Both the position numbers and the translations under genes were made by a program. 64,000 nucleotides of DNA, from NCBI RefSeq assembly GCF_037042905.1, contig NC_087250.1, forward strand, positions 27,902,001 through 27,966,000, given 5' to 3'. The notes under the pieces are model-generated. The model was not told the DNA's origin. It saw only the letters and a program-made list of their open reading frames with translations, and did not search any database. Of the stretch, positions 8,130-50,572 are shown one piece after another (the stretch's first letter is position 1; each line of letters starts with the position of its first letter). This stretch comes from Lytechinus pictus (lineage: Eukaryota).

Positions 8130-8159
8130 GAAGGGGAGGGGTGTGGAAATTAGTGGGGG

Positions 8160-8204
<45 letters not shown>

Positions 8205-15874: not shown

Positions 15875-16166
15875 GTAAATATTTATTTACTTTACCGTAT
15901 AGTCGCACGTAAAAATATTTTCCAGTCAATGTTTTAAAACCAAAACCACACACAATAAACTTCATAAATAATAAAAAAAATCACAGAAATATATCCCCTG
16001 CTCAATGATTATCGCTTTAAAATTTTCTTCGATGGTGTGCGTATAATCTACTGCTTATACCATGTATACCTCTGCAGCAGACTTCCCCCGTTGTATTAAA
16101 GAAAAACGAAAAAAACAAACAAACAAAGAAATGAACAGAAGTAAAGCAGAAAATAATATGCCTAAG

Positions 16167-21825: not shown

Positions 21826-24800
21826 TAGACCGGCCAAAAGTAAAAAAGTGCTCTAGATAAGGATTCGACGGCAAAATTTGTTAATGCTTGGCATCCCAGC
21901 TAAAAGTCTTGCAAAAATACCCAGGAATAGCGTACGGCCGGATGCCAAGCGCAATTTTGCATGAAAGTGTCATTTTAGCGTAAAAACTGAAAGAATGTCG
22001 AAAATCACGCATTTTGATATTTTGACGGATTATCATCATATTTTTAACTATCTTTGATATGAAATTAATTTTATTCAGAGTTACAAATTATAAGTCTCAT
22101 AAATATGCATTTTGAATTTGAATATTACGCACACACATATAGCACAGGGAAACATAAAACCGCGATTTCCTCAAAATAAAAGTTTGTGAAAACTATCAAT
22201 AGTTTGAAGTTTTTTTTTACGCAGCTTAAATTCTTTGATTTAACTGCGTTTATCCATCAAATGTATAGTAAATGTCCTAATGTCACAAATATTAAAAGAA
22301 TTTTCAAGTAAGATGGAAGATATCTCACGTTATGTTATCCGAAAGGAGACAATGTGCATTTTACCAGGCGCGCATTTTGAAAGAAAAATTGAAAATACCG
22401 TACATTATGTACATAATTACATGTATAAGTACATACTAAAGCGAGTTTTTAATTACATGTATAAGTGCATTCTAAACCGAGTTTTTAATTGGATAGCACA
22501 ATTTGTCAATTATTTGCATCCCAGCTAAAAGTCTTGCGAAGTCCTGAGGAATAACGTACGGGCGGATGCCAAGCGCAATTTTGCGTGAAACTGTAATTTT
22601 TTGCGTAAAATCTGAAAGAATGTAGAAAATCACGCATTTTGATATTTTGACGGATTATTTTAATATTTTTTATCATCTTTGATATGCAATTATTTTTATT
22701 CAGAGTTTCATATTGTAAGTCTCATAAATATGCATATCAAATTTGAATATTACACACACACATATGGCACAGGGAAACATAAAACCGCGATTTCCTCCAA
22801 ATAAAAGTTTGTGAAAACTATCAATAGTTTAAAGTTTCTTACGCAACTTAAATTCTTCGATTTAAAAGCGTTTCTCAATCGAATGTTTAGTAAATGTCCT
22901 AATGCCACAAAAATTAAAAGAATTTTCAAGTAAGATGGAAAATATCTCATTTTATGTTATCCGAAAGGAGACAATGTGCATCTTACCAGGCGCGCATTTT
23001 GAAAGAAAAATTGAAAATACCGTACATTATGTACATAATTACATGTATAAGTACATACTAAAGCGAGTTTTTAATTACATGTATAAGTACATACTAAAGC
23101 GAGTTTTTAATTGAAAAGCACAATTTGTCAATTCTTTGCATCCCAGCTCAAATTCTTGAGGAAATACTGAGGAATAACGTACGGGCAGATGCCAAGTGCA
23201 CTTTCGATTGAAAGTATAATTTTTAGCGTATAATCTTAAAGACTGTCGAAATCACGCATTTTGACCTTCTGACGGGATTTGTAAGAAATTGTGATTCCCT
23301 TTGATATGCGATCATTTACATTTGGACTTTCAAATTATAAGTCTACTAAATTTGCATTTCAATTTGGAATATTACACACACGTATATGGCAATATGACAT
23401 TAAAAATAGTGATTTTACTAAAAATATAAGTTTGTGAAAACTATCAATAGTTCTAAGTTTTTTACAATTTAAATTCTTCGATTTAAATTGGTTCATCTAT
23501 TGAATATCGATCGTTTCTAATGTCACAAAATTATATTGAATTTTCAAGTAAGATGGAAGATATATTTTCTGAAAGGGGACATGCAAAATTTATCGGGAAT
23601 GGGGAGGGGGGCATTTTTAATGTAAAATTGAAGATACTGTAATTTATTAACATAATTACATGAATAAGTACATGCATACTTAAAACGAGTTACAAAATTT
23701 CTGGCCGCAACTGCCTCTTCCCCCCCCCCCCCCCCCCCCGCTGCCTAAGGTCATGTATAGTCTCCGAAAGGATTACATGGAGCAGCTGAAAGTGTCCCGT
23801 TTTCAAGATAATATACCACTAGCGTAAAGGGGGGGGGGGGCAGACTGCCCCCCGACGAGTCACAACTCATGCAGGGGATGTACCCCTGCCCCCTGGCTTA
23901 TTTAGTCCTGCTCTGCTATGCATGCAGGCGAGACAAGAATAGGTATTGCCGTGACAACGGCCATATTTTTTTAGACTTTGATAATCCAATAATTGAAGTA
24001 AAATGTAGATTGACAGAGTAGTTTAAAAATGCTAATTCGATCGTTTTATTCATACATGTTTATTTTCTATGCACTAGCGTTCCTACGGGGGGGGGGGGGG
24101 CAGAGGGGGCAGTCTGCCCCCCTGACGAGTCCCAAGCCATGCAAAATACGTATCCATGCCCCCCCCCCCCCCCCCGACGAGCTTGAAGACCTTTTTGGCC
24201 CCCCAACCTGACGAGCTTGAAGACTTTTTTTGCTCGTCAAATTTTTTGGCCGACGGTTTTGCCCCCCCCCCTGTGGAAAATCCTATACGCTACTGTTTCT
24301 ATGATTTTGGATTGATATTACCATGGTAACGGCAAATCAAATATCAGACCTATTTATGAATATCGCCACATGTAGATTTACGTTCAGCACCAATTAATTC
24401 GCGGAAATAGCAAGAAGATCGAACTCTACAAAAGTAAACATAATCCTATATACTATCATGACGAGTATCGCACTGATTAATATTAGTATGTGCAATATAG
24501 ATAGTATTGTGCGCTGTTTGTATTTTATCAGAAATGCGCATCCGATAAATGTACATTGCTATCTTTCGCATATATAACATAAAATGATATATCTTGCATC
24601 TTATTTCAACATTCGTTTTCACTATATGTGCCATGACAACAATTATTATGTATTTATTCGGTTAGCGCTAAAATTGACGAAATTGAGATGCGGAACACAA
24701 ACATTATACTATTGATAGTTTTCACAAACTATTATTTTTAGTAAATCACGATTTTATATTTCATATTGCCATATATGTGTGTGTAATATTCCAAATTGAA

Positions 24801-25712
24801 ATGTATATTTACTAGACTTATAATTAAAAACTCTGAATAAAAATAATGCCATATCAAAGATAATCAAAAATATGATGATAATCCGTCAAAATATCAAAAT
24901 GCGTGATTTTCGACATTCTTTCAGATTTCACGCAAAAAATGATACTTTCACGCAAAAGTGCACTTGGCATCCGCCCGTACTTTATTCCTCAGTATTTCCG
25001 CAAGAATTTGAGCTGGGATGCAAAGAATTGACAAATTGTGCTTTTCAATTAAAAACTCGCTTTAGTATGTACTTATACATGTAATTAAAAACTCGCTTTA
25101 GTATGTACTTATACATGTAATTATGTACATAATGTACGGTATTTTCAATTTTTCTTTCAAAATGCGCGCCTGGTAAAATGCACATTGTCTCCTTTCGGAT
25201 AACATAAAATGAGATATATTCCATCTTACTTGAAAATTCTTTTAATTTTTGTGGCATAAGGACATTTACTATACATTCGATTGAGAAACGCTTTTAAATC
25301 GAAGAATTTAAGTTGCGTAAAAAACTTTAAACTATTGATAGTTTTCACAAACTTTTATTTGGAGGAAATCGCGGTTTTATGTTTCCCTGTGCCATATGTG
25401 TGTGTGTAATATTCAAATTTGAAATGCATATTTATGAGACTTATAATTTGAAACTTTGAATAAAAATAATTGCATATCAAAGATGATAAAAAATATTAAA
25501 ATAATCCGTCAAAATATCAAAATGCGTGATTTTCTACATTCTTTCAGATTTTACGCAAAAAATGACAGTTTCACGCAAAATTGCGCTTGGCATCCGGCCG
25601 TACGCTATTCCTGGGTATTTTTGCAAGACTATTAGCTGGGATGCCAAGCATTAGCAAGCATTAACAAATTTTGCCGTCCAAAGTATAAAAAATCGTTTTG
25701 GCCGGTCTACTA
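21826..25712. mobile_element. TAG-ended non-autonomous DNA transposon (Academ-like ends) with ~625-bp subterminal tandem units in inverted arms
   Basis: tagaccggccaaaa...ttttggccggtcta; left units start at 21891, 22516, 23138; inverted copies at ~24707-25650; possible ATAT TSD (right end 25709 or 25712). Confidence 0.75.
24072..24295. mobile_element. hAT-type MITE with 8-bp TSD
   Basis: cactagcgt...acgctactg; TTTCTATG at 24064-24071 and 24296-24303. Confidence 0.85.
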
Positions 25713-26850
25713 ATATATACTAATCCGATTGTTAGCTAACAAAGGGACAGTGGTTTGTAGTTTGCCAGAGCTAACAACCTGTTAACAGTCTCAACATAAA
25801 AGATGCAATGTCAGACATGCAGCATCATCAACAAATTAAAAGCAGTGTATATATGATTACATCTGAATGACTTATGATAAATCCATATGAAATAAATCAT
25901 TTGCAGGAAATCTACAACTTTAATGACTGATATCGTATTATAAACAACTACACCATAAATGTTTATTATAATTTCCACTTGAATTTTTCAATTTGACATC
26001 TCCCATTGTTACAGTTGCAAGTCAGTCTCAATTTGCAGAAATTACGATTGTGAAGGATTATGATCTTCCTCTTTTGTAGATCTGGAAAATATCATCTGAG
26101 CATGTTCACCATTTATTAAAATATATTTATTTCTTAAATTATACTTGAATTTAAAATCAGGATTTGTTCACAGATAAGAGAAGTTGGACATTTTGCACGT
26201 CACAGACATTTGGTTCATGAAAATACATGTATTAACATGATCACTAGTAATGCACTATCAAATATCAATACATGAAACCAGTTACTGTGAAAAATAAAAA
26301 TGATGGGTACTGGACGGAACGTTTCTGGACTAATGTTTTTTTTTTGGAAACATAGATCTAGGATTAATTGAAATATGACAAAATGTTAGAAACAAAATTT
26401 CATTTCTAAACAGAATGGCAATGACTCTCCTGGGGCCTGGTTCATAGAGAGGTATAACTATCATAACTTTGTCTTTCATATGGCGCAACATCCAATTATA
26501 ATTGTGGTTTCCATGGTAGTTGCCATAATGTTGAAGTACTTTTGAAATGGGCCCCTGGACATGAAGAATACTGACAAAAGAAAATTGATGGTGAAATAAA
26601 AAGAATACATTCATCTTCAAGAAAAATTTTGACGCCCCATGCATTTTATTTCTTTATATATCTCGTATTATTTTTTTCCGTAATAAATTGATGAGCATCA
26701 CTTTTTTTTCAACAACAAATATAATGTAGATTGCTGAAGAACCTACAATATATATGGAGCTGAACTAAACTCAAAATAAAGATGTCGACAAAATGAAGTC
26801 CAGTGTTGCTCTTATTTATGGGGCCAAACCTCACTTGGCATTGCTTTTAA

Positions 26851-27400
26851 AGAACAAATCCACCCCAACAAAAAGTTGATTTGAATAAAAGAGAAATATC
26901 CAACAAGCATAACGCTTAAAATATCATAAAAGTCGGATGTAAAATAAGAAAGTTAGGACATTTTAAAATTTCGCTTAATTTTCACAAAACAGTTATATAC
27001 ACATCCTGATCGGTATGCAAATGAGGAGACTAATAACGTCATTCGCTCACAATTTTTTTTAATTATTTATTATATGAAATATTAAATGTTTTTTTCTTCT
27101 CATTGTCAAGAGAAACAATAACTCCCTGAACATGTAGAATTAGCGTTGGTTTAGTCAAGTTGGTCAATATTGTCAAATAAATGAAATATTGTATTTTTCA
27201 AACAATAAAAAAAGAAATAGTAAGGGACATCACTGTCTCACTTGCATATTACTGAGATGTGCATATCACTCTTTTGTGAAAATATGCGAAACTTTAAAAT
27301 GTCATAACTTTCTTATTTTACATCCGATTCTGCATGAATTATGCTAGTTTGATTTTTTCTATTTATTCAAATCAACAGTTTTCTTGGGTGGATCTTACCT
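26851..27400. mobile_element. Kolobok-like MITE with TTAA TSD
   Basis: TTAA at 26847-26850 and 27401-27404; agaacaaatccaccc...gggtggatcttacct; inverted arms. Confidence 0.8.
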
Positions 27401-29099
27401 TTAAACAAATAATATATATACCATATTCAAATATGTTCGAAAATAACTTTGTATAACCAATTAAACTAATAGAAACAGAGAGAATAGAAGAATCGAGAAA
27501 AGTGGAAGAACTAAGGGTGAAAGGTGAACCAATGAGCAAGAGATCATGAATGAAGAAAAATGTTCTGAATATGAATGAGAAGACAATAGAAACATGGAAT
27601 GGCAATAGAATATGATGTATAAACTAAGGAATGAGATGAACAGGTGACAATGGCATATAAATGGGAAGTGAAGTATGGAAAGCAAAGTGTAAAATAAAAA
27701 GATTAATCATGACAAAATTCAATTACATTTAAATATAACGACCCATTCCCGTATAGATGAGTGAATAACAAAGAATATTTGTGTCTGTCCAATGAGCAGT
27801 CCGTCAGATTGTTGCTTCTTGGACTTGGTGGAATTCAAGACAAGATTAATTTATACATAGGACATAGATGCACGAAAACCCCAAAATTACTTCTTGCCAC
27901 TCCTGAAGCAGGTTTCTTTGCCTTGGGTCTTCATGGGTACATTGGACGGTTTATGCCTGCTGGACGGGATCCGAGCACGGCTTTATTGCCGTGCCGTGGG
28001 GCAGTGGAAACTAGAAAACAGCATGGCGTGCCGTATGCCGTGCCGGAATGCCGTGCACGGTCGCCGTGCCGGATGCGGTGTAAACGGGCCTTTACCCTGT
28101 CAGTGCATATACCTTAACTGTCTATACCCGTTTGAGTAGTTTATACAGAATCACAGAACATTCAGTTTCACTCGTCTTCAGAGAACAAGAAATTAAAAGT
28201 GACTAGTTGATTTTTTTCTTCGGTTTATTAATTTGCTAATGTATGGGAGTGGAGATGGACGAGTGTCAACCCAGGAGGGATGCAACTTATTTAGATATAT
28301 GTATCTTTTCACTCTTCTTTTGAGATCTATAGGAACACTTAAAGCATTACAGTGTAGGCCTACATCGTTTAGATGTCAGGCAACCGGGAAAGAAGGAGGG
28401 GGGGGGGCTCCGCGGAACACCATTGGTTGCCCCCGTATTAAGGGTCTAGGCCTGCATTCAATTCAGAAATTGAGCTAGAATTGCAACTATTTTACTCAAT
28501 ATATTGCTGAAATACAACTCTAACAACTCTTTGCTATTTAAATGTCTTTTTTGACAAATATGCAAAGTTGTATTGGTAGTATGCTAAAATCTAGGCTATA
28601 GGCAATCCCCTAATTAGCCTCTTGTCGAGGCCCTGGCGGTTGCTATGTTCCTGAGCGAAGCGAATTAGGCCTGGCGAGCGCAGCGAGCCGGGGCCTCTGG
28701 GAGCTGAATTATATCTTCATGAGGAACGTCTTCCTAATGAAAATACATGAGTCATGAATATTACCGGTTACCTAGTACAATGAAATGTCAAAGCTGTTTC
28801 GCCCGGGGTTCGGAATGATAGTTGTCCACTATTCCCAGGGACTATGCTGCAGGGGATTCATTTAATTGCTGGACACTAAAGGGGATATAATCAGCAAAAT
28901 GCTACAAGTAGTGGTACTATACTAGTACTAGCCGTAACAGACGCATTACCGCCCCGAAACTTCCCGGGAGATCGGCCTGGTCAGACTCGAGTCAAGGGGA
29001 ATCACTAACTGAACAACTCGACTCCAGCATTCCACGCGGAGATGGATAATTGACGCATAGTGGAATCCGGGGTGTACGGAAGCTTAGACGTGCCCCCAG

Positions 29100-29760
29100 A
29101 AGACAAGATGAGAAGACGAGAAAAAGAGCCAAGATGACAAGAAGACGAGGAAAGAAGACAAGAATACGAGATCCTCAATCTTGTCATGTCGATTTATTTA
29201 GGATGAGAAGGCGAGATGACAAGATCCATTATCTCGACATGTTGACTTATTTTGGATGAGAAGATGAGAAGACAAGATCATCAATCTCGTCAAGTCGACT
29301 TATTTAGGATGAGAAGGCGAGATGACAAGATCCATTATCTCGACATGTCGACTTATTTAGGATGAGAAGGCGAGATGACAAGATCCATTATCTCGACATG
29401 TCGACTTATTTAGGATGAGAAGGCGAGATGACAAGATTCATTATCTCGACATGTGGACTTATTTAGGATGAGAAGATGAGAAGACAAGATCATCAATCTC
29501 GTCAAGTCGACTTCGTCAGGACGAGAAGATAAGAAGACAAGATCCTCAATCTCGTCAAGTCGACTTATTTAGGATGAGAAGACAAGAAGACAAGATCCTC
29601 AATCTCGTCAAGTCGACATGTTTAGGACAAGAAGATAAGAAAACAAGATACAGAATCTCATCAAGTCGACTTATTTAGGATGTGAAGATGAGAAGTCAAG
29701 ATCCTCAATCTCGTCAAGTCAGCTTATTAAGGATGCGAAGATGAGAAGACAAGATCATCG
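29100..29760 (+). repeat. 53-bp subterminal tandem repeat, about 12 copies (left arm)
   Basis: Unit ggatgagaaggcgagatgacaagatccattatctcgacatgtcgacttattta at 29201, 29254 and onward. Confidence 0.9.
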
Positions 29761-31147
29761 CGCTGGAGTTATCGACCAATAACGCCCGACCAATAAGGAT
29801 TTTGAAGATAGCGGACTATAAATCATTATATTTTGCGTACAGTGTCTACAAAAGCACGAACTGAAATTGAAATTATATTAAAAGATATCAATTATCTATT
29901 GAAGTTAAAACTAAAAACTTATAAACATCTATTAACCATTAGTAATAATATAAGAATAATAAAACTCTCAGTGCAGATTGGTGGTTGCGGGAGCGAGCCA
30001 GATTAGGGGCGCGCATGGATGACAACGTAACAAAAAAGGTGATTTTCCTTTTTTTTAATCTTTATATGCCCACAATGCAAAAACAAGGATAAAAAACACA
30101 TAGAACATGGCCCATCAGTTGGAGTAAATAGTGTGTGTGTTTGGATGGGGGATGTGACAGACACAAATTTTGTTCTCTTCAGTGAATGAGGATTTTTTTT
30201 TTTGGGGGGGCTAGTTGTTGTTTTTTTGCAGGCGTAACCGTCAGTAAAAAATAATTATGGGTCACGGAGGGGGGGGGGTGGCAAATATGGCATAAAAGAC
30301 AAATTCTATTAATAAATGCAAGAGAGCAAAAAATTGAAACTACGGGAACATCAGCCTCATCACCCACTTTAGTTTGTTGCACAAGGGCGTAAATACGGGG
30401 GGATTAATGATCCGCCCATGCCGTTCTGTTTGTTTCTGTTTGTTTGGCATATAAATACCCCCCTCACTTTTTAAGACAGGAACGATATTTTTTAATCATA
30501 AACTGATTAATATAGGCTACTGCCGTTAATTCGTGGATTCGTCTGTTAATGCATTTGGAGTGCTTCGGTCGCTAGGCTCATTCGCTTAATCTATATAATA
30601 TATCCCAATGTTAAATTCATGCACTGGCAGATCAAGGGGGGGGGGCACATCCCTATTGTGGAATATTCTTTTAAAAAAGATATTGCCCTTTTCCATGATA
30701 AATTTCACGTGCTGCAACACCGGGTCTAACTCTTATTGTTGCAATTAGAAAACTAAATCTAAGACCCCCTTAATCATGAAAAATAATTAGCGGAAATCTA
30801 CGGCAAAATTCAATATTTTTCTTCAAAATAAAATATCGAGAGACATACCGCCATTTCGCCCAGTGAAGGTCCCATGCTGGAATCAGAGGTAAAAATGGCA
30901 GAGATAAAAATGGCAATTAATGGCCATTATTACCTCTGCCATTTTTACCTTTGCCATCATTACCTTTGCCCGTTTTTACCTCTGCCATTATTAGAAAAAG
31001 ATTAACATTGTTAACACAAGGCGTAACGATCAATAACATTTTATGAACATTTATATTCTTTATCACCAGTTTTATTATGATCATCGTTTTGGATTATCAT
31101 GATCATCATATTTATTTTTATTACCAGCAGAAGCTGACATCCCCTCC

Positions 31148-32643
31148 CAGTGGCGTACCGTGGGTCGCGACATTGGGGGGGGGGGCACCAGCAAAATTCT
31201 TGAGTCACTTAGTGAGCGCGCGAAGCGCGCTCAGTTGTCAGGTATACTGACCTAATAGAGACATTTTAAGGAAGCACTTGTTGTCATTGTAATCATGAAT
31301 AATATTCGCATCTCAGCAATCAAATAATGCGAGCGCGAAGCGCGAGCTGAAAATATTTGATATTCAGACCTAAAAAGGAACTTTATAATCGAATTTTTGT
31401 GATCATGATACGTACCTGTTTCGCTAAACAATGCGAGCGCGATGCGCGAGCCGAAAATTTTTGTATACATTGATCCCAAACAGGGAGATCTTAAGGACTA
31501 TATTTTAGGAATCTCTTAATAGTATACATATCTCACCAAAGTCATCTAATGCGAGTGCCAAGCGCTTGCTGATTTTGTTAGAATTACATTTAAACACATA
31601 TGAAACACTTGTAGTCATTGTAATCATGAATAACATAGGCATCTCACTAATCAAATATTGCGAGCGCGAAGCGCGAGCTAAAAAATCAGGAATTTCAAAC
31701 ACGAAGAGAGGCAATTTAAGGATTGTTTGTAGGAATTCGCAAAACCATACGTATTTCAATAACAAAATGATGCGAGAGCGAAGCACGAGCTGAAATTTGT
31801 GTATATATTGACACAAACAGGATTTTTTTTTTAAAGGAGTATACATATCTCACTATAGTCATGTAATGCGAGTGCCAAGCGCTTGCTGATTTTGTTAAAA
31901 TTACATCTGAACACATGAAGCACTTTTTGTAGTCAAAGTAATCATGATTATCATACGCGTCTCACTAATCAAATATTGCGAGCGCGAAGCGTGAACATTT
32001 AGATAATTCAGACCTGAAGCGGGGCAGTCTAAGGCTTGTTTGTAAGAATTCACTAAGACCATTCGTATTTCACTAACCAAATGATGCGAGCGCGAAGCGC
32101 TAGCTGAATTTTTTTGGATATTTAGATCAGAAAAAGGGACATTTCAAGGACTGATTTTAGGAATTCATGGAGAGCAGACATATCTCACCAATCCACTGAA
32201 GCGAACGTAATCACGGACAGGAAATGTTTTATATTAAGACCTTAACATGGGGCAATCACTTTAAGTAGTCATGAAAAAGAACCACATGTCACTATATAAA
32301 ACAATAATATATTTGGTGTATATTGACTTGAAAACAGGAGGTTTTCGTACAACAGGTTTATATATCTCTTTAAACAGACAATGCGAGCACCAGGAACAAT
32401 GAAGATATGGACCCTGAGCAAATTATGTTTCATAAAGTTATATGATAAAAATGTTTCCTATGTAAAATAACATAACATGACCATAATACAATATACAATT
32501 ATAATGAATAATAATTTCTTCTTTCCCACTACGTTCCTCTTCTTTTCTCCCTCTTTTTCTCCTTTTCCCCGTTTTTTGGGGTCAGCCGATGGGGGGGGGG
32601 GGGGGGGGGCACGTGCCCCCCATGCCCCCCTGTAGTTACGCCG
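31148..32643 (-). mobile_element. hAT-type MITE nested in the left arm (family of 59627-60762)
   Basis: cagtggcgta start; truncated tacgccg end; TSD tcccctcc / tcctctcc; internal gcgagcgcgaagcgcg repeats. Confidence 0.8.
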
Positions 32644-32924
32644 TCCTCTCCAATACAAATCCTATTTTATAGAGGTTACTCGCACGCGACCAACACACTT
32701 AATCCCCTGCATCTTTAAACCATTTGCTTGGGGTGCAATTGCTCAGATAAAATCGAAATTAAGCGTATGCTTGATCCGACCGCTTATTCTTAATGCAATA
32801 CATGTTTGGAAACAAAACAAACATGTCTCATCGTTCGTTATTTTATTATTTCATAATATCGTGTTATCTTGTAAGGACATCACCTTTCTTTTTATCAAAA
32901 TGAATTAATTTCATTTTCGGAAAT

Positions 32925-33120
32925 ACGCACCCTATTTAATTTTCGGATTAACGAACCTTATTTCGTTTTCAGACTAACACACCTTCGGATTAATGAACCT
33001 TATTTCGTTTTTCGACTAACGAACCAACGGAATAGCGAACCTCATTTCGATTTCGGATTAACGAACCTTAGGAATAACGAACCTACGGAATAACGGAGCT
33101 TCGGAATTACGAATGTATGC
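32925..33120. mobile_element. Short element with ttcggattaacgaacc repeats (family of 57809-58505); mirrored at ~33828-34010
   Basis: Ends ttcggaattacgaatgtatgc exactly as at 58484-58504. Confidence 0.6.
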
Positions 33121-34287
33121 AAAATCTATGACCCAATCCTGGAAATAGGCGAAAATCGCAAAATCAAGCCAAAATTAATATTTTTCTTTGATCGAAATAA
33201 AACATACCGAATGACATATATTTGGAATAGTGATTGGCGTTTTCTAAAAGCGCAGATACTGTCCTTTCACTTAGTATAGGTCCCATGCTGGAACACTCAA
33301 TCTAACTCTTATTGTTTACGATTGAATCTACGACACCTTCCAGGAAATAGGCGAAAATCGCAAAATCCCGCCAAAATTTATCTTTTTCTTTGATCGAAAT
33401 AAAACATATCGAATGACATATATTGGGAATAGTGATTGACGTTTTCTGAAAGCCCAGCATGGAACCTACGACAGGTGAAAGGGGAAAATCTGGGCTTTCA
33501 GGAAACGCCAATCACTATTCCCAATATATGTCATTCGATATGTTTTATTTCGATCAAAGAAAAAGATTAATTTTGGCGGGATTTTGCGATTTTCGCCTAT
33601 TTCCTGGAATGGGTCATAGAATCGTTTGTATACATTAAGAGTTAGTTCGAGTGTTCCAGCATGGGACCTACGGCAGGTGAAAGGGGAATATCTGGGCTTT
33701 TAGAAAACGCCAATCACTATTCCCAATATGTGTCATTCGATATGTTTTATTTCGATCAAAGAAAAATATTAATTTTGGCTTGATTTTGCGATTTTCGCCT
33801 ATTTCCAGGATTGGGTCGTAGATTTTGCATACATTCGTAATTCCGAAGCTCCGTTATTCCGAAGGTTCGTTAATCCGAAATTGAAATGAGGTTCGCAATT
33901 CCGTAGGTTCGTTAGTCGAAAAACGAAATAAGGTTCATTAATCCGAAGGTGTGTTAGTCTGAAAACGAAATAAGGTTCGTTAATCCGAAAATTAAATAGG
34001 GTGCGTATTTCCGAAAATGAAATTAATTCATTTTGATAAAAAGAAAGGTGTTGTCCTTACAAGATAACATGATATTATGAAATAATAAAATAACGAACGG
34101 TGAGACATGTTTGTTTTGTTTCCAAACATGTATTGCATTAAGAATAAGCGGTCGGATCAAGCATACGCTTAATTTCGATTTTATCTGAGCAATTGCACCC
34201 CAAGCAAATGGTTTAAAGATGCAGGGGATTAAGTGTGTTGGTCGCGTGTGAGTAACCTCTATAAAATAGGATTTGTATTAGAGGGGA

Positions 34288-35466
34288 CGGCGTAACTACA
34301 GGGGGGCATGGGGGGCACGTGTCCCCCCCCCCCCCCCCCCCATCGGCTGACCCAAAAAAAAAACGGGGAAAAGGAGAAAAAGAGGGAGAAAGGAAGAGGA
34401 ACGTAGTGGGAAAGAAGAAATTATTATTCATTATAATTGTATATTGTATTATGATCATGTTATGTTATTTTACATAGGAAACATTTTTATCATAACGTTA
34501 TGAAACATAATTTGCTCAGGGTCCATATCTTCATTGTTCCTGGTGCTCGCATTGTCTGTTTAAAGAGATATATAAACCTGTTGTACGAAAACCTCCTGTT
34601 TTCAAGTCAATATACACCAAATATATTATTGTTTTATGTAGTGACATATGGTTCTTTTTCATGACTACTTAAAGTGATTGCCCCATGTTAAGGTTTTAAT
34701 ATTAAACATTTCCTGTCCGTGATTACGTTCGCTTCAGTGGATTGGTGAGATATGTCTGCTCTCCATGAATTCCTAAAATCAGTCCTTGAAATGTCCCTTT
34801 TTCTGATCTAAATATCCAAAAAAAATCAGCTAGCGCTTCGCGCTCGCATCATTTGGTTAGTGAAATACGAATGGTCTTAGTGAATTCTTACAAACAAGCC
34901 TTAGACTGCCCCGCTTCAGGTCTGAATTATCTAAATTTTCACGCTTCGCGCTCGCAATATTTGATTAGTGAGATGCGTATGATAATCATGATTACATTGA
35001 CTACAAAAAGTGCTTCATGTGTTCAGATGTAATTCTAACAAAATCAGCAAGCGCTTGGCACTCGCATTAGATGACTTTGGTGCGATATGTATACTATTAA
35101 GAGATTCCTAAAAGATAGTCCTTAAGATCTCCCTGTTTGGGATCAATGTATACAAAAAATTTCGGCTCGCGCATCGCGCTCGCATTGTTTAGCGAAACAG
35201 GTACGTATCATGATCACAAAAAATCGATTATAAAGTCCCTTTTTAGGTCTGAATATCAAAAATTTTCAGCTCGCGCTTCGCGCTCGCATTATTTGATTGC
35301 TGAGATGCAAATATTATTCATGATTACAATGACAACAAGTGCTTCCTTAAAATGTCTCTATTAGGTCAGTATACCTGACAACTGAGCGAGCTTCGCGCGC
35401 TCACTAAGTGACTCAAGAATTTTGCTGGTCCCCCCCCCCCAATGTCGTGACCCACGGTACGTCACT
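34288..35466 (+). mobile_element. Mirror copy of the nested hAT-type MITE in the right arm, ~320 bp shorter
   Basis: Reverse complement of 31148-32643 lacking one internal repeat unit (~31570-31890). Confidence 0.8.
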
Positions 35467-36859
35467 GGGAGGGGATGTCATTTTTAATAAGAGCTTCTGC
35501 TGGTAATAAAAATAAATATGATGATCATGATAATCCAAAACGATGATCATAATAAAACTGGTGATAAAGAATATAAATGTTCATAAAATGTTATTGATCG
35601 TTACGCCTTGTGTTAACAATGTTAATTTTTTTCTAATGCAGAGGTAAAAACGGGCAAAGGTAAAGATGGCAAAGGTAAAAATGGCAGAGGTAATAATGGC
35701 CATTAATTGCCATTTTTACCTCTGATTCCAGCATGGGACCTTCACTGGGCGAAATGGCGGTATGTCTCTCGATATTTTATTTTAAAGAAAAATATTGAAT
35801 TTTGCCGTAGATTTCCGCTAATTAATTTTCATGATTAAGGGGGTCTTAGATTTAGTTTTCTAATTGCAACAATAAGAGTTAGACCCGGTGTTGCAGCACG
35901 TGAAATTTATCAGGGAAAAGGGCAATATCTATTTTTAAAAGAATATTCCAACTATAGGGATGTGCCCCCCTTGATCTGCCAGTGCATGAGCTTAACATTG
36001 GGATTTATCATCGCGAAATCCAATAAGAATATATTATATAGATTAAGCGAATGAGCCTAGCGACCGAAGCACCAAAATGCATTAACATACGAATCCACGA
36101 ATTAACGGCAGTGGCCTATATTAATCAGTTTATGATTAAAAAATATCGTTCCTGTCTTAAAAAGTGAGGGGGGTATTTATATGCCAAACAAACAGAAACA
36201 AACAGAACGGCATGGGCGGATCATGAATCCCCCGTATTTACGCCCTTGTGCAACGAACTAAAGTGGGTGATGAGGCTGATGTTCCCGTAGTTTCAATTTT
36301 TTATTAATAGAATTTGTCTTTTATGCCATATTTGCCACCCCCCCCCCCCCTCCATGACCCATAATTATTTTTGACTAACGGTTACGCCTGCAAAAAAACA
36401 ACAACTAGCCCCCCCAAAAAAAAAATCCTCATTCACCGAAGAGAACAAAATTTGTGTCTGTCACATCCCCCATCCAAACACACACACTATTTACTCCAAC
36501 TGATGGGCCATGTTCTAGGTGTTTTTTATCCTTGTTTTTGCATTGTGGGCATATAAAGATTTAAAAAAAAGGAAAATCACATTTTTTGTTACGTTGTCAT
36601 CCATGCGCGCCCCTAATCTGGCTCGCTCCCGCAACCACCAATCTGCACTGAGAGTTTTATTATTCTTATATTATTACTAATGGTTAATAGATGTTTATAA
36701 GTTTTTTAGTTTTAACTTCAATAGATAATTGATATCTTTTAATATAATTTCAATTTCAGTTCGTGCTTTTGTAGACACTGTACGCAAAATATAATGATTT
36801 ATAGTCCGCTATCTTCAAAATCCTTATTGGTCGGGCGTTATTGGTCGATAACTCCAGCG

Positions 36860-37572
36860 CGATGATCTTGTCTTCTCATCTTCGCATCCTTAATAAGTTG
36901 ACTTGACGAGATTGAGGATCTTGTCTTCTCATCTTCACATCCTAAATAAGTCGACTTGATGAGATTCTGTATCTTGTTTTCTTATCTTCTTGTCCTAAAC
37001 ATGTCGACTTGACGAGATTGAGGATCTTGTCTTCTTGTCTTCTCATCCTAAATAAGTCGACTTGACGAGATTGAGGATCTTGTCTTCTCATCTTCTCGTC
37101 CTAAATAAGTCCACATGTCGAGATAATGGATCTTGTCATCTCGCCTTCTCATCCTAAATAAGTCGACATGTCGAGATAATGGATCTTGTCATCTCGCCTT
37201 CTCATCCTAAATAAGTCCACATGTCGAGATAATGAATCTTGTCATCTCGCCTTCTCATCCTAAATAAGTCGACATGTCGAGATAATGGATCTTGTCATCT
37301 CGCCTTCTCATCCTAAATAAGTCGACATGTCGAGATAATGGATCTTGTCATCTCGCCTTCTCATCCTAAATAAGTCGACTTGACGAGATTGATGATCTTG
37401 TCTTCTCATCTTCTCATCCAAAATAAGTCAACATGTCGAGATAATGGATCTTGTCATCTCGCCTTCTCATCCTAAATAAATCGACATGACAAGATTGAGG
37501 ATCTCGTATTCTTGTCTTCTTTCCTCGTCTTCTTGTCATCTTGGCTCTTTTTCTCGTCTTCTCATCTTGTCT
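36860..37572 (-). repeat. 53-bp subterminal tandem repeat (right arm)
   Basis: Reverse complement of the 29100-29760 array with a different number and order of variant units. Confidence 0.9.
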
Positions 37573-38712
37573 TCTGGGGGCACGTCTAAGCTTCCGTAGG
37601 GGTGGAATCGCATGATATTTCGTCGTCTCTCTTCGCCAAGAATCCACGGGTCGCCATTCAAGATGAGCTCATGAATATTCAACAAGACGTCATAGAAGCC
37701 CGCGCTCTCATTGGATGATTTTCAACGACCAGTTTTTGGTCGGAATATTGGTACAAACAATAAAAAACAAACAAAACAAAGTCGATGAAGTTCGGCTCAG
37801 ATGTCAAGAGGCCCTGTCTCGCTGGCTCTGCTTCGCTATATCCCTCGCTTCTCTCGGGAAGCAGCCGACGGGGGCTCGACAAGAGGCTATCCCCACTTGG
37901 CTTGGGCGCGTTTTTACAAACTGGTCTAGACATGCTAGACTTCATGACATCATAATTCAGGGGCTGATCCAGCTTTCGCCAATAAGGAGCCCGAATTATT
38001 TTCAACTATGTGTTTACGATCAGCCACACAGTATCCATTTTTGTTTATTTCTTTGAAGGGGTAGTCACTAATGCTTATTCATTTTGAAAACAACATACAT
38101 AATAATTCCATTTAAGCCCTATCTAAATAGTGCAAGCGCGAAGCAAGGGCTATTTTGTGGAAATTTCATGCTTTTCGTCCTGAAAATTTAACATTGTTGA
38201 CTGACAATTTTTCTGATCATGGACAAGATGCGTAAGTAACTAAATGATTCCTGCGAGCGCAAAACCTAGACAATCGTGTGTCTTCCTACATACATAATGC
38301 GAGCGCGAAGCACGAACAGAAAATTTTTATAGTCTGATCCGAAACTTTATAAGCACTTTTTGAAGAACAAAAACAAGCTACGTATCTCAAAAAACATGCT
38401 TGCGCGTGTTTTAGCTTTAGACCTATAGAATCTCGGAATTCTAAAAACATTTCTTATCCTGAATATGAATGCGAACGCGAAGAGCAGGCTGAAAATGTAT
38501 GATATTTCGGGGACATCCCGATAGACCGCGGGTCCGATAGTCCGCGGGTCCGATAGTCCGCGGGTCCGTTAGTCCGCGGGTACGATAGACCGCGGGTCCG
38601 ATAGTCCGCAGTGTGTGTAAAATTATGATCAGATATATCAAATGTCATCGAGAGGTCCAAAGGTTAAAGTTTTCCGTGGGGGAACTGCCTCACCTTCCCC
38701 CCACCCCCAGCT

Positions 38713-43987: not shown

Positions 43988-44615
43988 GGTTCTATAACAA
44001 CCCAATTAGGGCAATCATCCCCTGACAACTACTTGAAGGAAAATACCACCCACGGAAATTTACCCTCCAGACAATTACCCCGGATTATTACCCTTAGTAC
44101 GGAGCCTTTGAAATACCATCGAGGTGACGACATGGCGTGATACTTTATCTTGCCATGTATAATTAATAAGCTTATTATTTCGACATGGCGATATATTCTA
44201 TCTTGTCAAGTCGATATATCGACATGGCGAGATATGAAGTGTACAAGTCCCGGCGAGAATCCCGATATATTGCCATGTTGACATATAACTTGTTACAAGT
44301 CGACTTGGCAAGATAAAATATCTCACCATGTTGACGTATAACTTTTTATATGTGGACTTGGCAGGATAACATATCTTGCCATGCGGAAATAATAAGCTTA
44401 TTTAGTCGACATGGCAAGATAAAGTATCTCGCCATGTCGTCAAGTCAATGGCATTTGAAAGGCTCCGTACTAGGGGTAATTGGCGTCTAGAGGATAAATT
44501 TTCGGGGGGGGGGGGGGTAACAGTCCCCGATGTTAGAAATATGGGGATAATATTTTCCTTGAAGTCCATGTAGTTGTCAGGAGGCGATTGTCCTTTGGGT
44601 CATCGTTATAGAACC
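43988..44615. mobile_element. Small foldback MITE hosting the 44098-44469 element
   Basis: ggttctataac...gttatagaacc ends; cctgacaactac / gtagttgtcagg inverted. Confidence 0.65.
44098..44469. mobile_element. TAC..GTA-ended MITE resembling the ends of the giant palindrome
   Basis: tacggagccttt...aaaggctccgta; internal gtcgac and atggcgagata motifs like the 53-bp units; no clean TSD. Confidence 0.7.
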
Positions 44616-45497
44616 CCATGGACTCGTATCATTTACCTTTTGACCCGTCTTGATGACATTGGATCTCACTATATCCTGATCATAATTTTACACACACCGC
44701 GGACTATCGGACCCGCGGACAATCGGACCCGCGGTCTATCGGACCCGCGGTCTATCGGACCCGCGGACTATCGGACCCGCGGTCTATCGGGCTGTAACCG
44801 ATATTTCGATCTGTCAGAGAACAAAAGTCGATTTCTTGATATGGTTTTTAATTGATTTCTTAATATAGTTTACTTCTGGCAAATGGAGATATGTGTGTGT
44901 GGGGGGTCCACAGAACCGTAGTGCCCCCTCTTATATCGTTTCGACCTTAGGCCGGCAATCAACTCACTACAGATACCAGGATTTCATTTATTTGTTTACT
45001 CAGTACTCTGCTGAAGTAAAATCAAATAATATAATGTCTTTTGTGGCCAAGCATGCAAAAATCTGATTCGGCCCTATGGCTGGTTTTTGTGCAGTTACAA
45101 GACGCATAAAAGCTCGAAACTTGATAGCCTGGAGCGAAGAGACCGATCGCTCGTGGGGCCCTCTTGTATTTTAGGGAGAGATTGAGGATTTAGGGCAAAT
45201 TATTGGGCCTTTATTTAATTTTCAGCAGCATTCACCTCACCTGAGTTGATCGAGTTCAGCACAGTGCGGGTAAATTTCTTGCTGAAAAAACAAAGAGGGC
45301 ATCAGGTTGTTCGTGGACCCACATCCCCGTTTGCCAACACCAAAAATGTACTTTGTAATGTTTGTATAATGCTACAACAATCTAAGCCATGTACGGCCAT
45401 GCTTAACTATAGTTGGTCTGGATTGGTTTTGACTGAAGCAATATGTTTTGGTTTTGATTTGTTTCTTTCTACAAGTAACCCAGATTAACAGGAAGAC

Positions 45498-45774
45498 ATG
45501 GATGATTTTGATGAACTTTTGATCAAAGTTGCCAAACGAGTCCAACAAAACTCGGAAATCGAAAGATTAGGAAAAAAACTTGAATTCCCTCCAGAAGATG
45601 TTCAACGTTACATAGCAACTAATCACAAAACACATATCATTACTTGGGATGGAACTCTTCAGATGCTCCGGGATTGGCGTAAAGGTCAAGAAATTGCTAA
45701 AGAGAGAGATAATTTGAAGACTGCTCTGAAGAAAGCAGATCAAACTCGTCTTGCTGAGGAACTCTTTCCTTCAA
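45498..45774 (+). CDS. Coding exon 1: DEATH-fold domain of a DEATH-B-box-coiled-coil-propeller protein
   Basis: MDDFDELLIKVAKRV...IERLGKKLEF...DVQRY...GTLQMLRDWR...LKTALKKADQTRLAEELF fits a six-helix death-domain pattern; gacATGG start; donor A|GTAAGA after 45774 (phase 1). Confidence 0.8.
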
Positions 45775-46893
45775 GTAAGATAAAGAAAGAAATATTGAAA
45801 CTGTTAAAAATCTCATTTATTAGGAAGAAGCATCAAGGTTTTTTTCTTCTGACAATGCATTACATGTTTCATACTATTACACCATGCTTATTATTTTGTT
45901 GTTTTTGATACTTTAGTAATTGTCTCTCTTTACTACTCAATAACGATAATGATGAAAATAATAATAACAGTCAAAGTACTAATAATAAAAAAATAATGAT
46001 AATAATATAAATGATAATATCGAAAATAATAATAAAAGTACTGATGATAATAATAATAATAACAATACACAAAATAGTCATAACAATAATAATAATAAAA
46101 GTAATACAACTAAAAACCATATTTTTTAGATAGTGAAATACATTACGAATGCAGTTGTTTTTTTTAAAGCAGTTTCCCCACAATACTTTTTGAAGGGTGC
46201 TCAGGAGGAAAATAATCATATTTATATCAAAAGAATAAAATTACCGAGCATACGGTTGGAAATTACATTCGAGTCTGAGATCAAATAACGACATTATTGA
46301 ATTTTGAAATTTAGCAATATTTTATTTGGGGGGGAACAGATTAATGCACGTGTAAATGAAGATTATCTTTTAAATTCAATAAGTTTTGTTAACCCAATTA
46401 CTTTTAATTTTGGTGGATAATGGAGAAAAATATTATGGCTTATGAAAAAAAATAATAAGTGGGATATACGATTCCTGATTATGCACATGATTCATGAAGA
46501 CATGCTGATATCACTGTTTCACTGAAATCATGTAGATTTTAAAAATATCATAACTTTGAGGATTTTTTTAAATGTAATTCTGCATATGTTTTATGCCTGG
46601 GACACCCTTCAGGAAAAAAAGCACCAATACTCCCAGGTAACGAGGACCATTTTTTAAACACATGTCGTTTAATAGTCCTTGTCAATTTGGTTCCCATTAA
46701 AAAGAAAATGTGAATATATCTTTCCTGAATCCGAGGGAATTTACATTGACAGGAATCCTGCAGTGAATGTTAATCATATGAAATTATTTAGAGTAAACAT
46801 TTTGCAATCAAACACCATTAGTAATAGCGTATAGCGATAAAATAGAGGAAAGTCGTCCATCATTTCGTTGTCATTATCTCATACACGATGCAG

Positions 46894-48542
46894 GTTGCTC
46901 TTTGCCGGCTTCCCAACCTGAAAGAGATGACGAACTCGAGGTCAAAGGTGACAGCGTGAATTTATCATGTGATCAGGACAATGAGCCAATAGAATTCTTT
47001 TGCAATACACATCACATTCCCATTTGTCGTCAATGCAATGCCAAAGATCACCTGAAAGCGTGTCAGATTGAAAGCATCAATGATGTCATCCGTGAGAGAA
47101 GACACAAAGTTGATGAGAAAAGGCAGAAAATACAAGAACTTAAGAATCAATGGGAAACACTCGACGCGAAAAAGTTCGCCATAACGTCGGAAAATACAAA
47201 GTTTCAGACAATTTATGACAATATTAAAGCATCATATCGCAACAATATCAAATGTGTTGATGAAAAGGAGAACAGGATGATTAGGGTTATTAACGAGGAG
47301 GCAGATGAGGAAATAAGACTAGTAAATGAGATGAGAGAAAAACGGATTAAGGATTGCAACACCGACAGAGAAAATGAGCGAAAAATCATCAAAGACAAAG
47401 AAGCAGAACTTTTATCAGATGTAAATAAAATCAGCGAAGTCGTTTCTAGGAAGATCAAAGACATTACAAATAAGATTAATCAAGCAATGAACGCTATTAA
47501 GATTATCGAATCGACCATCGCGTGTATAAACCAAGATGATAAAAAATTGGTGAATGAATCTCCTAAAGTACTTGCATCTATTGATGAAAATTTAAGTTTG
47601 AATGTTCATCAAGATGTTAGCGACTGTCTTGACCGAATACAGAATGAAGTTGAGAGAATGAAGTTTGTAGAGGGGGAAGTAGGTGGAGAATACTATGGTA
47701 GAATTGAAGGGTATATCGGTAAATGGGAATTTGTCAAGACAATCCACATTCCATCGGTTGTTAATAACCCGTGTGTGCGTGGTTTAGTAAGTGATGATGA
47801 GATATGTGTTCAGGGCGCAGATAACAAAGACATGTATATTACAAACATCAACACTCTACACACAGAGAAAGTCATTGATGGAGGTGTGTGGATTACATCA
47901 TGTGCGCCCATAGACAGTAACGTAATAGTATGTGGTAAGATGAGATTGGATTGCATTGGTGACATGCTTGGATGCATCACTCTCTATGACAGACAATGGA
48001 AGGTGATTAGAGACATCGGCATACCAAGGAATAGATACGATACTGATAGTGTGTATGTTGATGTTGACAGGGATGGGATGATCCTCGCTGCTCAGTACTA
48101 TCAGTCTAATATCTACGTCATCAATCCTGCTGATGATAAGATAGTAAACACTATTACGATGCAGGGTAAGAAGGTGATGGATGAGATACAAGCCTTGTCA
48201 TCAGGTGATATCGTTGTGAAGACAGATATTAATGAATTCACTGTTATCTCACGATCAGGAGAAGAGAAGGCTGTCATACACAGTGATGAGTGTTACAGGT
48301 CAGAGTGTCGCGTTGACAAACTGACAGACACACTCTACATCACGTACTGGGATGGAGCGCGTAAGACCTACGCAGTTGATCAGGTGTCACGTGATGGTAT
48401 TATCCAGGCAAGGAAGATCGTGAAATACGTGAAGTCAGGTCGCTCTCTGTCCACGCGCCCTTGTCATGTTTCTCCTTCTGGTAACCTCGTAAGATGTGAT
48501 GGAAACAAACTTCATCTTTACAAGAAGACATTCATCATGTAA
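46894..48542 (+). CDS. Coding exon 2: B-box-like zinc finger, coiled coil and beta-propeller-like domain (RING-less TRIM-like)
   Basis: Acceptor tgcag| at 46893; a phase-1 join puts it in frame with ORF 46902-48542; open to TAA; colinear with 2282-3936. Confidence 0.88.
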
Positions 48543-48601
48543 ATCATCAAGTATGATTCAAAAAAATATATATTGATGAGATACCTATTTTCAGCTTCAA
48601 T

Positions 48602-49155
48602 CCCGGAGGGGCCACTTACATTGACGAGTGGATACCATGCGCGACCCAAAAAACACGTAAAAAGGATGTCTTTTTCACGATACGGCACGTTACGTACGTA
48701 ACGTGATAAGGGTGTCAAAACCCCCAAAATAATGAAAAAAGGGTATCTATTTCGCTAGAAAAATAACGTGTTTAGGGTCAAATTTGCAAGTATGATAAAA
48801 CAAAATTAAAATGTTTTATAAAGGATGTCTTTTTTGCCCCAACACTTCGTGTTTAGGGTCCGATTTGCCCGAGGTGTAGAAGGTGGGGTCGTACTATACC
48901 AAAAGCCGACGACCGAAGGACCCGTAAAAATAAAATATTCCTGTACTTGTTTAGGGTAACGTTCATTTCAGGGAATATTTGCCAAGAGTATAGTTTTGTT
49001 TCCAATACTTGTGAAGGGTAGGGTTTCACACGCCAATACTTGTTAAGGGGTGCATTTTCAGAATATGGAAATTACGTGTTTAGGGTGCTTTTCGAGACCC
49101 CATGGTCGCGCATGGTATCCACTCGTGAATGGAAGTGCCCCCCCCCCCCCCCGGG
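48602..49155. mobile_element. CCCGG..CCGGG-ended MITE just 3' of gene copy 2, absent from copy 1
   Basis: cccggaggggccactt..acgagtggataccatgcgcgacc inverted to ggtcgcgcatggtatccactcgt..aagtgccccc..ccggg; flanked by CTTCAAT direct repeat. Confidence 0.8.
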
Positions 49156-49513
49156 CTTCAATGTCATTTTAATTGACGTCCCCCAACATGATTACATTCA
49201 TAATGCGCGTGTTGACGGTGTGAATGTTGTATCAATATACAGGTGCAATGTATTGCGGTGTTGCAAGAAACTTGCCATCGATTGCAGGTCAGTTTTAGGT
49301 TCCAAAACTGAAAATCGTGCATTTCATTGAAAATTTGCAACTGATTGATGGTCAGCTTATGTTATAAACAAATATACATGTAAATGATTTGGTTTAGTTA
49401 AAATTGATCTATCAATTGCTAAATTTGCAATTGATCGCAAATATTTTATTGTGTCTTACAAAATGCAGTGAATAATATTTAGCCGTCTAGATTAATATTT
49501 TTATTCAAATGTA

Positions 49514-50230: not shown

Positions 50231-50572
50231 AGTGTACTCGTAATAATAAAATGGTTAACCAATTGCCTACTTTAATCCCTGTAGACGGTCTATGGGAATG
50301 GCTGAACCCAGCATATGACGAGTTAATTACCAACTTGTGTTAGCTGAACCCGATCATTTACCAAACGCTATTTCGTTCAATGTTATTCGTTGTTATGCTA
50401 ACAGTGATCATTTTATACCGGGATTAAATTTGCTTTTAACTTCATTGGGTCTTTAAATCCAATTTATCCATCAGGTTGATTTTATTTTTCATTCTGTTGC
50501 AAAAAAGGTGAAGTAATATAAGATTGTATTAAAAGGAGAGGGGAAAAGTGATGTGAAGTACAAGTAAGTGTA

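Follow-up and report, generated by a model that had tools for sequence, protein, structure and literature searches.

The TU elements of sea urchins are of the foldback type: they are non-autonomous, and their long inverted arms are modular, tandem repeats forming the outer domain and non-repeating sequence the inner one. The Foldback elements FB and Tetris are non-autonomous and built in the same way, the repeats of Tetris being at most 1.7 kb long on either side of a middle domain and its target duplications 8-10 bp (sections of PMC4079207). Longer repeats are known from Galileo, of the P superfamily, which makes 7-8-bp duplications. Passages on its two-TIR elements describe sizes up to 9021 bp, with 4246- and 4680-bp repeats; copy 112 of Drosophila willistoni (~9 kb) consists of two such repeats only, 4.2 and 4.7 kb long (PMC3573991, PMC4168063). 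According to the same passages, tandem repeats and other elements are nested in both repeats, the target duplications are identical, and a transposase is missing. In maize, Mu killer and Ac killer consist of two inverted copies of one end, with kilobase arms and a flanking target duplication; their arms hold transposase sequence and make dsRNA and siRNA, and related composite insertions have microhomology at the junctions (parts of PMC3440606, bioRxiv 10.1101/2020.01.07.897926 and 10.1101/2020.08.10.245175). IS3EU and GingerRoot transposons are defined, in parts of three papers, by TA..TA ends and 6-bp GC-rich duplications; their terminal repeats are >30 bp in fungal IS3EU and 100-150 bp in GingerRoot (PMC10045372, PMC12730594, PMC6839031). 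The best 2 of 34 occurrences in the supplement of PMC10045372 held nothing informative on urchin families.

The window (the whole 64,000-nt stretch of Lytechinus pictus DNA analysed here) contains an 8.5-kb mobile element without genes, in which the right half is a mirror image of the left, and this element is real. The palindrome spans 29075-37598 (8524 bp). Its left arm (29075..33457, plus strand, 4383 bp) and its right arm, the mirror of the left (33490..37598, minus strand, 4109 bp), make up 99.6% of that length, as is typical of the foldback class, where long inverted arms form most of the element. Between CCAG and CTGG lies a 32-nt spacer (33458..33489, plus strand), the start of an inner 202-bp unit. 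With the spacer left out, the arms mismatched in 90 of 4007 aligned columns (97.8% identity). They were further separated by 22 gap runs, eight of them at least 8 nt and the longest 317 nt; two runs of 45 and 8 nt together equal one 53-bp unit. No coding capacity was seen in the element, the longest stop-to-stop frames being 94 and 114 aa. None of the three element ORFs tested matched Pfam, and there was no Rfam match across 28000-38600. It ranks as selfish DNA that serves no demonstrated host function. A sequence-only reading of the locus had listed ~4.4- and ~4.1-kb arms, the 32-nt spacer, TACGG..CCGTA ends, 53-bp arrays and a GGGGTG duplication, and all were present where it had placed them. 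Its classification as a non-coding foldback element is supported; the nested host repeats, the origin of the spacer in a 202-bp unit and the uneven identity of the arms had been overlooked.

Fruit flies and maize have already yielded elements of the same design, and the 8.5-kb element is an unusually clean example, not a new kind. It differs from Galileo in its TACGG..CCGTA termini, 6-bp duplication, 32-nt spacer and readable microhomology junction, and from Tetris in having practically no middle domain and, again, 6 bp. Where the maize killers carry transposase sequence, the arms here carry non-coding host repeats, with no RNA shown. Compared with IS3EU/GingerRoot, the family repeat is long (~650 bp), the arms reach 4.1-4.4 kb, and neither a transposase nor a second gene is present. 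A foldback design with IS3EU/GingerRoot ends was not found in the literature listings and named passages covered, which were without most subscription journals and Repbase reports; the 8.5-kb element extends the design to such ends.

GGGGTG stands directly outside the left end (29069..29074, plus strand) and directly outside the right end (37599..37604, plus strand). Two random 6-mers from the window match by chance with a probability of 4-5 × 10^-4. The termini, TACGG..CCGTA, have the TA..TA form of IS3EU/GingerRoot and fit exactly the TAYGG..CCRTA of fungal families such as rust-fungus IS3EU, and the 6-bp duplication is of the length expected for this group, unlike the 7-10 bp of Galileo- or Mutator-type foldback elements. 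Judged by these sequence features, the ends and duplication of the 8.5-kb element fit IS3EU/GingerRoot, an assignment that had been proposed before and that agrees with the parts of PMC10045372, PMC12730594 and PMC6839031 describing such ends. A 2-bp TA-type or a 4-bp duplication was rejected as an alternative, because the flanks are GGTG and GGGG and the ends would be non-complementary. Each arm starts with a 78-bp terminal cap (29075..29152, plus strand, beginning with TACGG; mirror 37521..37598, minus strand), and the arms are identical over their first 400 nt. The cap is followed by a 53-bp subterminal array, the outer tandem-repeat domain of a modular foldback arm, with 11.4 units on the left (29153..29756, plus strand) and 12.4 on the right (36864..37520, minus strand). 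These units may be transposase-binding sites. Relative to the left array, the right one has gained one unit and had units replaced; the left retains a unit type found also in the public contig L001.

L001 matches the element end at 566 of 653 nt. Its homology begins exactly at 29075, the start of the cap, and both its flank and its interior are different; because it begins there with another flank, the terminus is independently defined. No long ORF was present in the L001 interior. The family shares a terminal repeat of ~650 bp, made up of the cap and the 53-bp array, behind which at least two different interiors occur. All 17 differences from L001 within the first 250 nt are common to both arms. 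Among the best 40 of 540 rows, 26 of 30 left-arm sites that differ from other copies recur in the right arm; at three of the other four sites the right arm agrees with the other copies, and one site falls in a gap. Because these variants are common to both, the arms stem from one ancestral arm; each consists of a single transposon end together with nested host repeats. Two inverted copies of one end thus lie inside one target duplication, as in the killer-type elements, and share their variants and an interior unlike that of L001. The right arm also holds a 12-bp stretch known from other copies, which the left arm lacks.

The element end is multi-copy, with 16 contigs at 29129 in run X1 in addition to L001, which has one end only. 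The 22-nt terminal word had one match in metagenome contigs and none in viral contigs or prokaryote genomes. Four runs were compared with 27400-33900, from the left flank through the left arm and the centre to 410 bp into the right arm, and their matches were at the family level. No piece bridging the left junction or the centre was among the matches listed for these runs, and no second complete palindrome copy was seen among their contigs and reads or in L001. None of 24 sequencing runs listed held half of the words (best share 0.14), and no RNA run holding them was among the matches listed.

The insertion target was an older element with ~84-bp inverted ends (28615..37889; 28615-28698 versus 37889-37807, 74% identity). 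Outermost is a host repeat (28092..38509, plus strand), split into 28092-28609 and 37900-38509, of which an uninterrupted copy lies at 11641-12747. Both host repeats continue in order beyond the palindrome. The mirror ends exactly at the termini, the right flank matching the mirrored left flank at only 13 of 40 positions.

Most of each arm consists of nested host repeats. Adjoining the array is an interior (29757..30034, plus strand) that is common to other family copies, in records 3 and 18 and in 9 contigs of run X1 at 29841, and absent from L001. By alignment, 30690..30882 (plus strand) represents the central 202-bp unit in diverged form, with its mirror at ~35726-35918. It is followed by a very high-copy small palindromic repeat of 15-bp units (30884..30993, mirror ~35638-35724). 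A nested CAGTGGCG-ended element with three ~320-bp units occupies 31148..32643 (plus strand), between 8-bp duplications (31140-31147/32644-32651), and its inner end is short by 3 nt. Its empty site, joining 31136 to 32644, was found in three of the four runs (X3, X7 and X19). The mirror copy (34288..35467, minus strand) has two units, and its insertion site and 3-nt loss are identical to those of the left copy. A 317-bp unit (31582..31898, plus strand) is present in the left arm only; a recent duplication was rejected as its origin, as it is only ~75% like the neighbouring units. Further inwards, a 16/42-bp tandem-repeat element is partly present at 32899..33120 (plus strand) and in the mirror at ~33827-34032; a free copy lies at 57812-58504. 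A free copy of the CAGTGGCG-ended element was also observed, at 59628-60762.

The centre is flanked by 202-bp units. Repeat comparison placed one whole and one truncated unit to its left (33112..33457, minus strand) and two units to its right (33454..33835, plus strand), the inner of which continues through the spacer. In the intact outer unit the corresponding stretch agrees with the spacer at 29 of 32 bases and has the same CCAG/CTGG pair. Left of CCAG stands mirrored arm sequence in place of the unit's natural neighbour, which it matches at 4 of 20 bases. Read from these matches, the palindrome centre is a junction at the 4-bp CCAG/CTGG word. Perfect pairing next to the spacer extends over 12 bp only. 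Cruciform extrusion, which had been suggested for the locus, is weakly contradicted, since a 32-nt spacer and 12 perfect bp are unfavourable in light of parts of PMC7999016. The spacer and the scattered mismatches would lower the likelihood of a cruciform or hairpin, and the element may persist for that reason.

Divergence between the arms is uneven. The inner arms differ in 59 of 2973 columns (2.0%), evenly spread, and six segments showed no difference (chi-square 4.7, df 5, p 0.46). The outer 0.6-1 kb differs in 2 of 890 columns (0.2%); both counts leave out a 78-nt mismatch cluster and 29475-29540, where 11 mismatches were ascribed to array turnover. When the change-point was left free, none of 1000 permutations reached the observed contrast, with support for a change at 29615-30055. 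The mismatch cluster (33258..33335) holds 18 mismatches in 78 nt (binomial 2 × 10^-14 against the 2% background, for a stretch chosen by eye). The pattern of even inner and near-identical outer arms suggests one fold-back duplication, followed by conversion of the ends.

We see about an even chance that the element is a non-autonomous cut-and-paste transposon with IS3EU/GingerRoot-type ends, in which two copies of one family end arose by fold-back. Host repeats gathered in one ancestral arm of a family that has the ~650-bp terminal repeat and alternative interiors. Near the 202-bp unit, a break or a stall in copying may then have let the strand fold on CCAG/CTGG, with a 32-nt loop, and synthesis from the fold-back would have copied the entire arm out to the terminus in a single event. 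Later, the inner 3.4 kb would have drifted to 2%, and conversion between the ends would have kept the outer 0.6-1 kb near-identical. Both ends inserted here with a 6-bp duplication, probably through a transposase acting in trans. In favour of this reading are the independently defined terminus, the variants common to both arms, the nested element in both arms, at the same site and with the same 3-nt loss, and its empty site in three of the four runs, the central junction, the even inner and near-identical outer divergence, the maize killers as a precedent for two copies of one end, and the 3-19-bp microhomology at junctions of maize composite insertions (parts of PMC3440606, bioRxiv 10.1101/2020.01.07.897926 and 10.1101/2020.08.10.245175). 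A further precedent is fold-back priming in yeast mutants, on 5-9-bp repeats with 3-12-bp spacers (a portion of PMC7999016), although the 4-bp stem and 32-nt loop proposed here are weaker. Also against fold-back, the intact 202-bp unit is not predicted to fold on CCAG/CTGG, the 18/78 cluster and the left-only 317-bp unit require extra later events, and a 372-bp relative lacks a 6-bp duplication. The sequence-only reading had the whole palindrome inserted as one unit. The GGGGTG duplication upholds this for the two ends, which inserted together; movement of the palindrome as a palindrome is unproven, and the mirror could have formed in place afterwards.

A deletion at the CCAG microhomology would yield a junction identical to that of fold-back. 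It would be the last step of a growth as in Galileo, in which ~0.7-kb repeats were lengthened by recombination and conversion between the ends, interior sequence and nested elements being copied across from one side, before the deletion removed the middle. In Galileo, interior sequence and nested elements were recruited into both repeats (passages in PMC3573991, PMC4168063), and the near-identical outer ends here indicate that exchange between the arms occurs. However, such growth predicts that the innermost parts are most alike or form a patchwork, whereas here divergence is even at 2% over the inner 3.4 kb and lowest in the outer parts. We consider it rather unlikely, bearing in mind the low power of an evenness test on 59 mismatches. 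If copies or alleles of one end that already differed slightly, from sister-family copies or homologous chromosomes, were joined tail to tail by aberrant transposition, the 2% and the indels would predate the palindrome. The 12-26-bp indels, the 317-bp unit and the diverged 78-nt patch do resemble allele differences, and the near-identical zone roughly coincides with the transposon-derived part. Yet nearly all diagnostic variants among the rows listed are common to the arms, which would require the two sources to be very closely related, and neither a central duplication nor a second pair of ends is present; such a fusion seems distinctly improbable. An assembly or read artefact, a fold-back chimera, would explain why no piece across the junction or centre was among the matches for the four runs. 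It is nevertheless extremely unlikely, as the mirror stops exactly at the termini, the two split host repeats resume in order, the 12-bp right-arm stretch occurs in other copies, and L001 has the same end with another flank. Substitutions and long indels also separate the arms, an argument that had been made before and that these further observations strengthen.

Between the arms, 50 perfect duplex runs are at least 21 bp long, and 3230 bp lie in runs of at least 30 bp. With the maize precedents Mu killer and Ac killer, this would suit an element retained because its transcribed hairpin RNA silences its own and the nested repeat families. RNA run X19 (~25 in 100 read), one sample that is possibly from another species and does not cover small RNA, placed no read on 28919-30003, 30438-30871 or 33259-33475, which are the low-copy parts. 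Its reads fell on high-copy repeats, both strands alike, and 88% continued into unlike sequence. This run therefore lends no support to the ~4-kb dsRNA of the sequence-only reading, and retention through hairpin RNA is, in our estimate, very unlikely. We give hardly more credence to the broader idea that IS3EU-type elements here routinely become palindromes by one-step fold-back, stay mobile and, wherever they move, supply hairpin RNA that acts on several families at once. If true, they would be a mobile animal counterpart of Mu killer, with arms carrying pieces of several high-copy repeat families and conversion keeping the ends identical.

The origin of very long foldback repeats has usually been argued from fragments. 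In the 8.5-kb copy the record can still be read, with a 4-bp word at the junction, insertions nested before the mirror arose, even divergence inside and near-identical ends. If the divergence arose after the duplication, a palindrome with 4-kb arms lasted in the germ line up to 2% divergence. An effect on the gene 8 kb downstream found no support, as nothing tested linked the two. A weak death-domain match (45489-45905, E 8e-4, below the Pfam cut-off) lies 7.9 kb from the element, and a B-box match (46797-48539, E 2e-5) lies downstream. A 372-bp relative with TACGG..CCGTA ends and common subterminal words was detected at 44098..44469 (local score 116-132, versus 26 ± 4 in 100 shuffles). It has no 6-bp duplication; its flanks, TTAG/CTAG, allow three readings (4 bp, TA or a symmetrised flank), and it sits at the centre of another palindrome.

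Self-comparison of the window recovered a single dominant inverted repeat at 29075-37598, far exceeding every other one there. The left arm (29075-33457) and the right arm (33490-37598) were separated by a 32-nt spacer. With the spacer excluded, 90 of 4007 aligned columns were mismatched between the arms, and 22 gap runs were present, 8 of them at least 8 nt long. The termini were TACGG..CCGTA, with GGGGTG immediately outside each; the chance of two 6-mers agreeing in the window is 4-5 × 10−4. Arrays of a 53-bp unit were located at 29153-29756 and 36864-37520. All these features had been claimed from the sequence-only reading, and all were found at their places. The claimed non-coding nature also held: the longest open frames were 94 and 114 aa, none of the three ORFs tested had a Pfam match, and Rfam gave no match for the element.

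A fold-back chimera, arising in the reads or the assembly, would continue its mirroring beyond the element, and thus the flanks speak against it: the mirrored left flank agreed with the right flank at only 13 of 40 bases. Two older repeats pick up again in order on either side. The stretch 28615-28698 pairs with 37889-37807, as two ends of one older host element, and 28092-28609 plus 37900-38509 together match an uninterrupted copy at 11641-12747. A 12-bp stretch kept in the right arm, and missing from the left, was present in other copies. Furthermore, homology to the public metagenome contig L001 began exactly at 29075 (566 of 653 nt), with a flank unlike that of the window. Among the pieces listed from the public sequencing runs, the best of which contained 0.14 of the words, none crossed the left junction or the centre. 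An artefact is very improbable, in agreement with the original claim. Speculatively, the older host element may itself have been bounded by TA..TA ends and an ATCCCC duplication (28611-28620 and 37885-37894), provided that a few bases went missing at its right end.

We conclude that the element is real: a foldback transposon that lacks genes and has ends of the IS3EU/GingerRoot type. In the sections cited, IS3EU/GingerRoot elements are defined by TA..TA ends and usually 6-bp duplications, and fungal families end in TAYGG..CCRTA (PMC10045372, PMC12730594, PMC6839031). The TA..TA-type termini and the 6-bp duplication are shared by our element, and the proposed IS3EU signature fits, giving a putative assignment; membership itself would be settled by the transposase. 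The design repeats one already in print: excerpts of PMC4168063 describe a Galileo copy of 9021 bp that consists of two repeats, 4246 and 4680 bp long, each of which contains tandem repeats and nested elements. Mechanisms of Galileo repeat growth appear in part of PMC3573991, and sea urchin foldbacks are cited in a passage of PMC4079207. Among the papers in the literature listings, none described a foldback bearing IS3EU ends. The foldback design is known; the new parts are the type of its ends and a history that can be read from the sequence.

The terminal repeat of the family is ~650 bp long. The L001 match ended at 29727, with an unrelated interior beyond, and the window interior to about 30034 recurred in several contigs, which came from other individuals or from relatives. 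Because the two interiors differ, the family has at least two behind one terminal repeat; the element carries one and the same interior twice, once per arm. We infer that the two interiors are the opposite ends of one parent element. The L001 interior had the word CAAAATGGC at 1540-1570, presumably promoter-like, and, where the contig ends (1944-2123), a 47-bp tandem repeat. Inward of about 30034, host repeats make up most of the arm. The depth of matching contigs, which is not a copy number, lay between tens and about 1600 across 29136-30871 and climbed to more than 10^5 over most of 30872-33258. A nested element with CAGTGGCG ends occupied 31148-32643 in the left arm and 34288-35467 in the right; both copies showed an identical 8-bp duplication and had lost the same 3 nt from one end. 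Its empty site was seen as a joint in three of the four runs, and a free copy with a perfect 8-bp duplication, ACCCCGGG, was located at 59628-60762. From the duplication length, we take it to be hAT-like. The nested copies in the two arms go back to a single insertion, predating the mirroring of the arms.

Shared variants indicate that both arms descend from a single ancestor. Over the first 250 nt, all 17 differences from L001 were common to both arms. The comparison with other copies covered 40 of 540 table rows, 30 of them inside the left arm; the window base was common to both arms at 26 of these 30 sites, the right arm had the other copies' base at 3, and 1 fell in a gap.

Two stretches were excluded from the divergence counts: 29475-29540 (11 mismatches; array units gained and replaced) and 33258-33335 (18 mismatches clustered in 78 nt). 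Outside 30030, 2 of 890 columns differed, compared with 59 of 2973 inside (Fisher p = 4 × 10−5, boundary picked after inspection). In a free change-point test, 0 of 1000 permutations were equally extreme, with support for 29615-30055, and the six inner segments were alike in divergence (p = 0.46). The simplest account of this profile is that a single end was duplicated once and that conversion acted on the ends afterwards. Gradual inward growth of the terminal repeats predicts a gradient opposite to the observed one, although this is a weak test. A fusion that joined two closely related alleles or copies is likewise compatible with the profile. A one-step duplication of a single end is the most likely origin of the foldback. 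In the 33258-33335 cluster, the left arm had 16 consecutive bases in common with a distant copy of the central 202-bp repeat unit (~30726-30741), the right arm differing there, a hint that a different variant of the unit converted this stretch or gave rise to it.

The spacer is not foreign DNA: 29 of its 32 bases equalled the intact outer 202-bp unit, and CCAG and CTGG framed both the spacer and the matching stretch. Left of CCAG lies mirror sequence, and the unit's own neighbour agreed at just 4 of 20 positions. Both fold-back priming at a short inverted word and deletion at microhomology would leave such a shape, and the sequence by itself fits either. Part of PMC7999016 describes such priming in yeast mutants, on 5-9-bp repeats with 3-12-bp spacers, and part of bioRxiv 2020.08.10.245175 describes deletion at microhomology in maize composite-insertion junctions. 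Folding prediction of the intact unit gave no fold on the CCAG/CTGG word.

The suggested insertion of the palindrome as one unit holds for its two ends. The GGGGTG duplication shows that the two ends went in together, but the mirroring could be a later event at this site, in which the terminal repeat gave the copying strand a way back to the chromosome. Identical ends together with 2% inner divergence are what either a recent move by an older palindrome or ongoing conversion would leave. The 22-nt end word had 1, 0 and 0 matches in metagenome contigs, viral contigs and prokaryote genomes, where no second complete copy was found. A 372-bp palindromic relative at 44098-44469 had the same TACGG..CCGTA ends and subterminal words (score 116-132 versus 26 ± 4 for 100 shuffles). 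Its flanks were TTAG/CTAG, without a 6-bp duplication, a reading made ambiguous because the relative sits exactly midway in an older palindromic element (about 43988-44615).

Cruciform extrusion, also suggested previously, is disfavoured by the 32-nt loop, adjoined by only 12 perfect pairs. According to a section of PMC7999016, forks in eukaryotic cells are stalled by inverted Alu pairs whose spacer is 12 bp, but not by those with a 52-bp spacer; such limits lapse in long single-stranded DNA, as stated in part of PMC10164571. Between the arms, 50 runs of at least 21 bp could pair as perfect duplexes. The proposed ~4-kb dsRNA found no support in the RNA run (one sample, species may differ), with 0 reads on low-copy parts. 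Reads on high-copy repeats came from both strands equally, 88% continued into dissimilar sequence, and 92 of 3558 were at least 99% alike.

No link was found between the element and the downstream B-box gene, the putative immune gene of the original claim. Two B-box genes lie in a duplicated region (2261-8405 and 46797-53068) whose pieces are 67-93% alike. In the first copy the gene is broken between two frames near 2842-2881; in the second it forms a single frame of 581 aa, preceded by an ORF with a weak death-domain match (45489-45908). The window is dense in short palindromic elements, including repeats at 555-1155, 26846-27405 and 57812-58504 (68-77% arm identity). A foldback-like element of ~3.9 kb at 21827-25707 had ACCGGCC ends, flanks mirroring each other, and arms built from tandem units of ~620 bp that are 74-91% identical. 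Non-LTR retrotransposon ORF fragments were found at 14879-15980 and 55023-55646, with a reverse-transcriptase match at 15555-15980 (E 6e-14).
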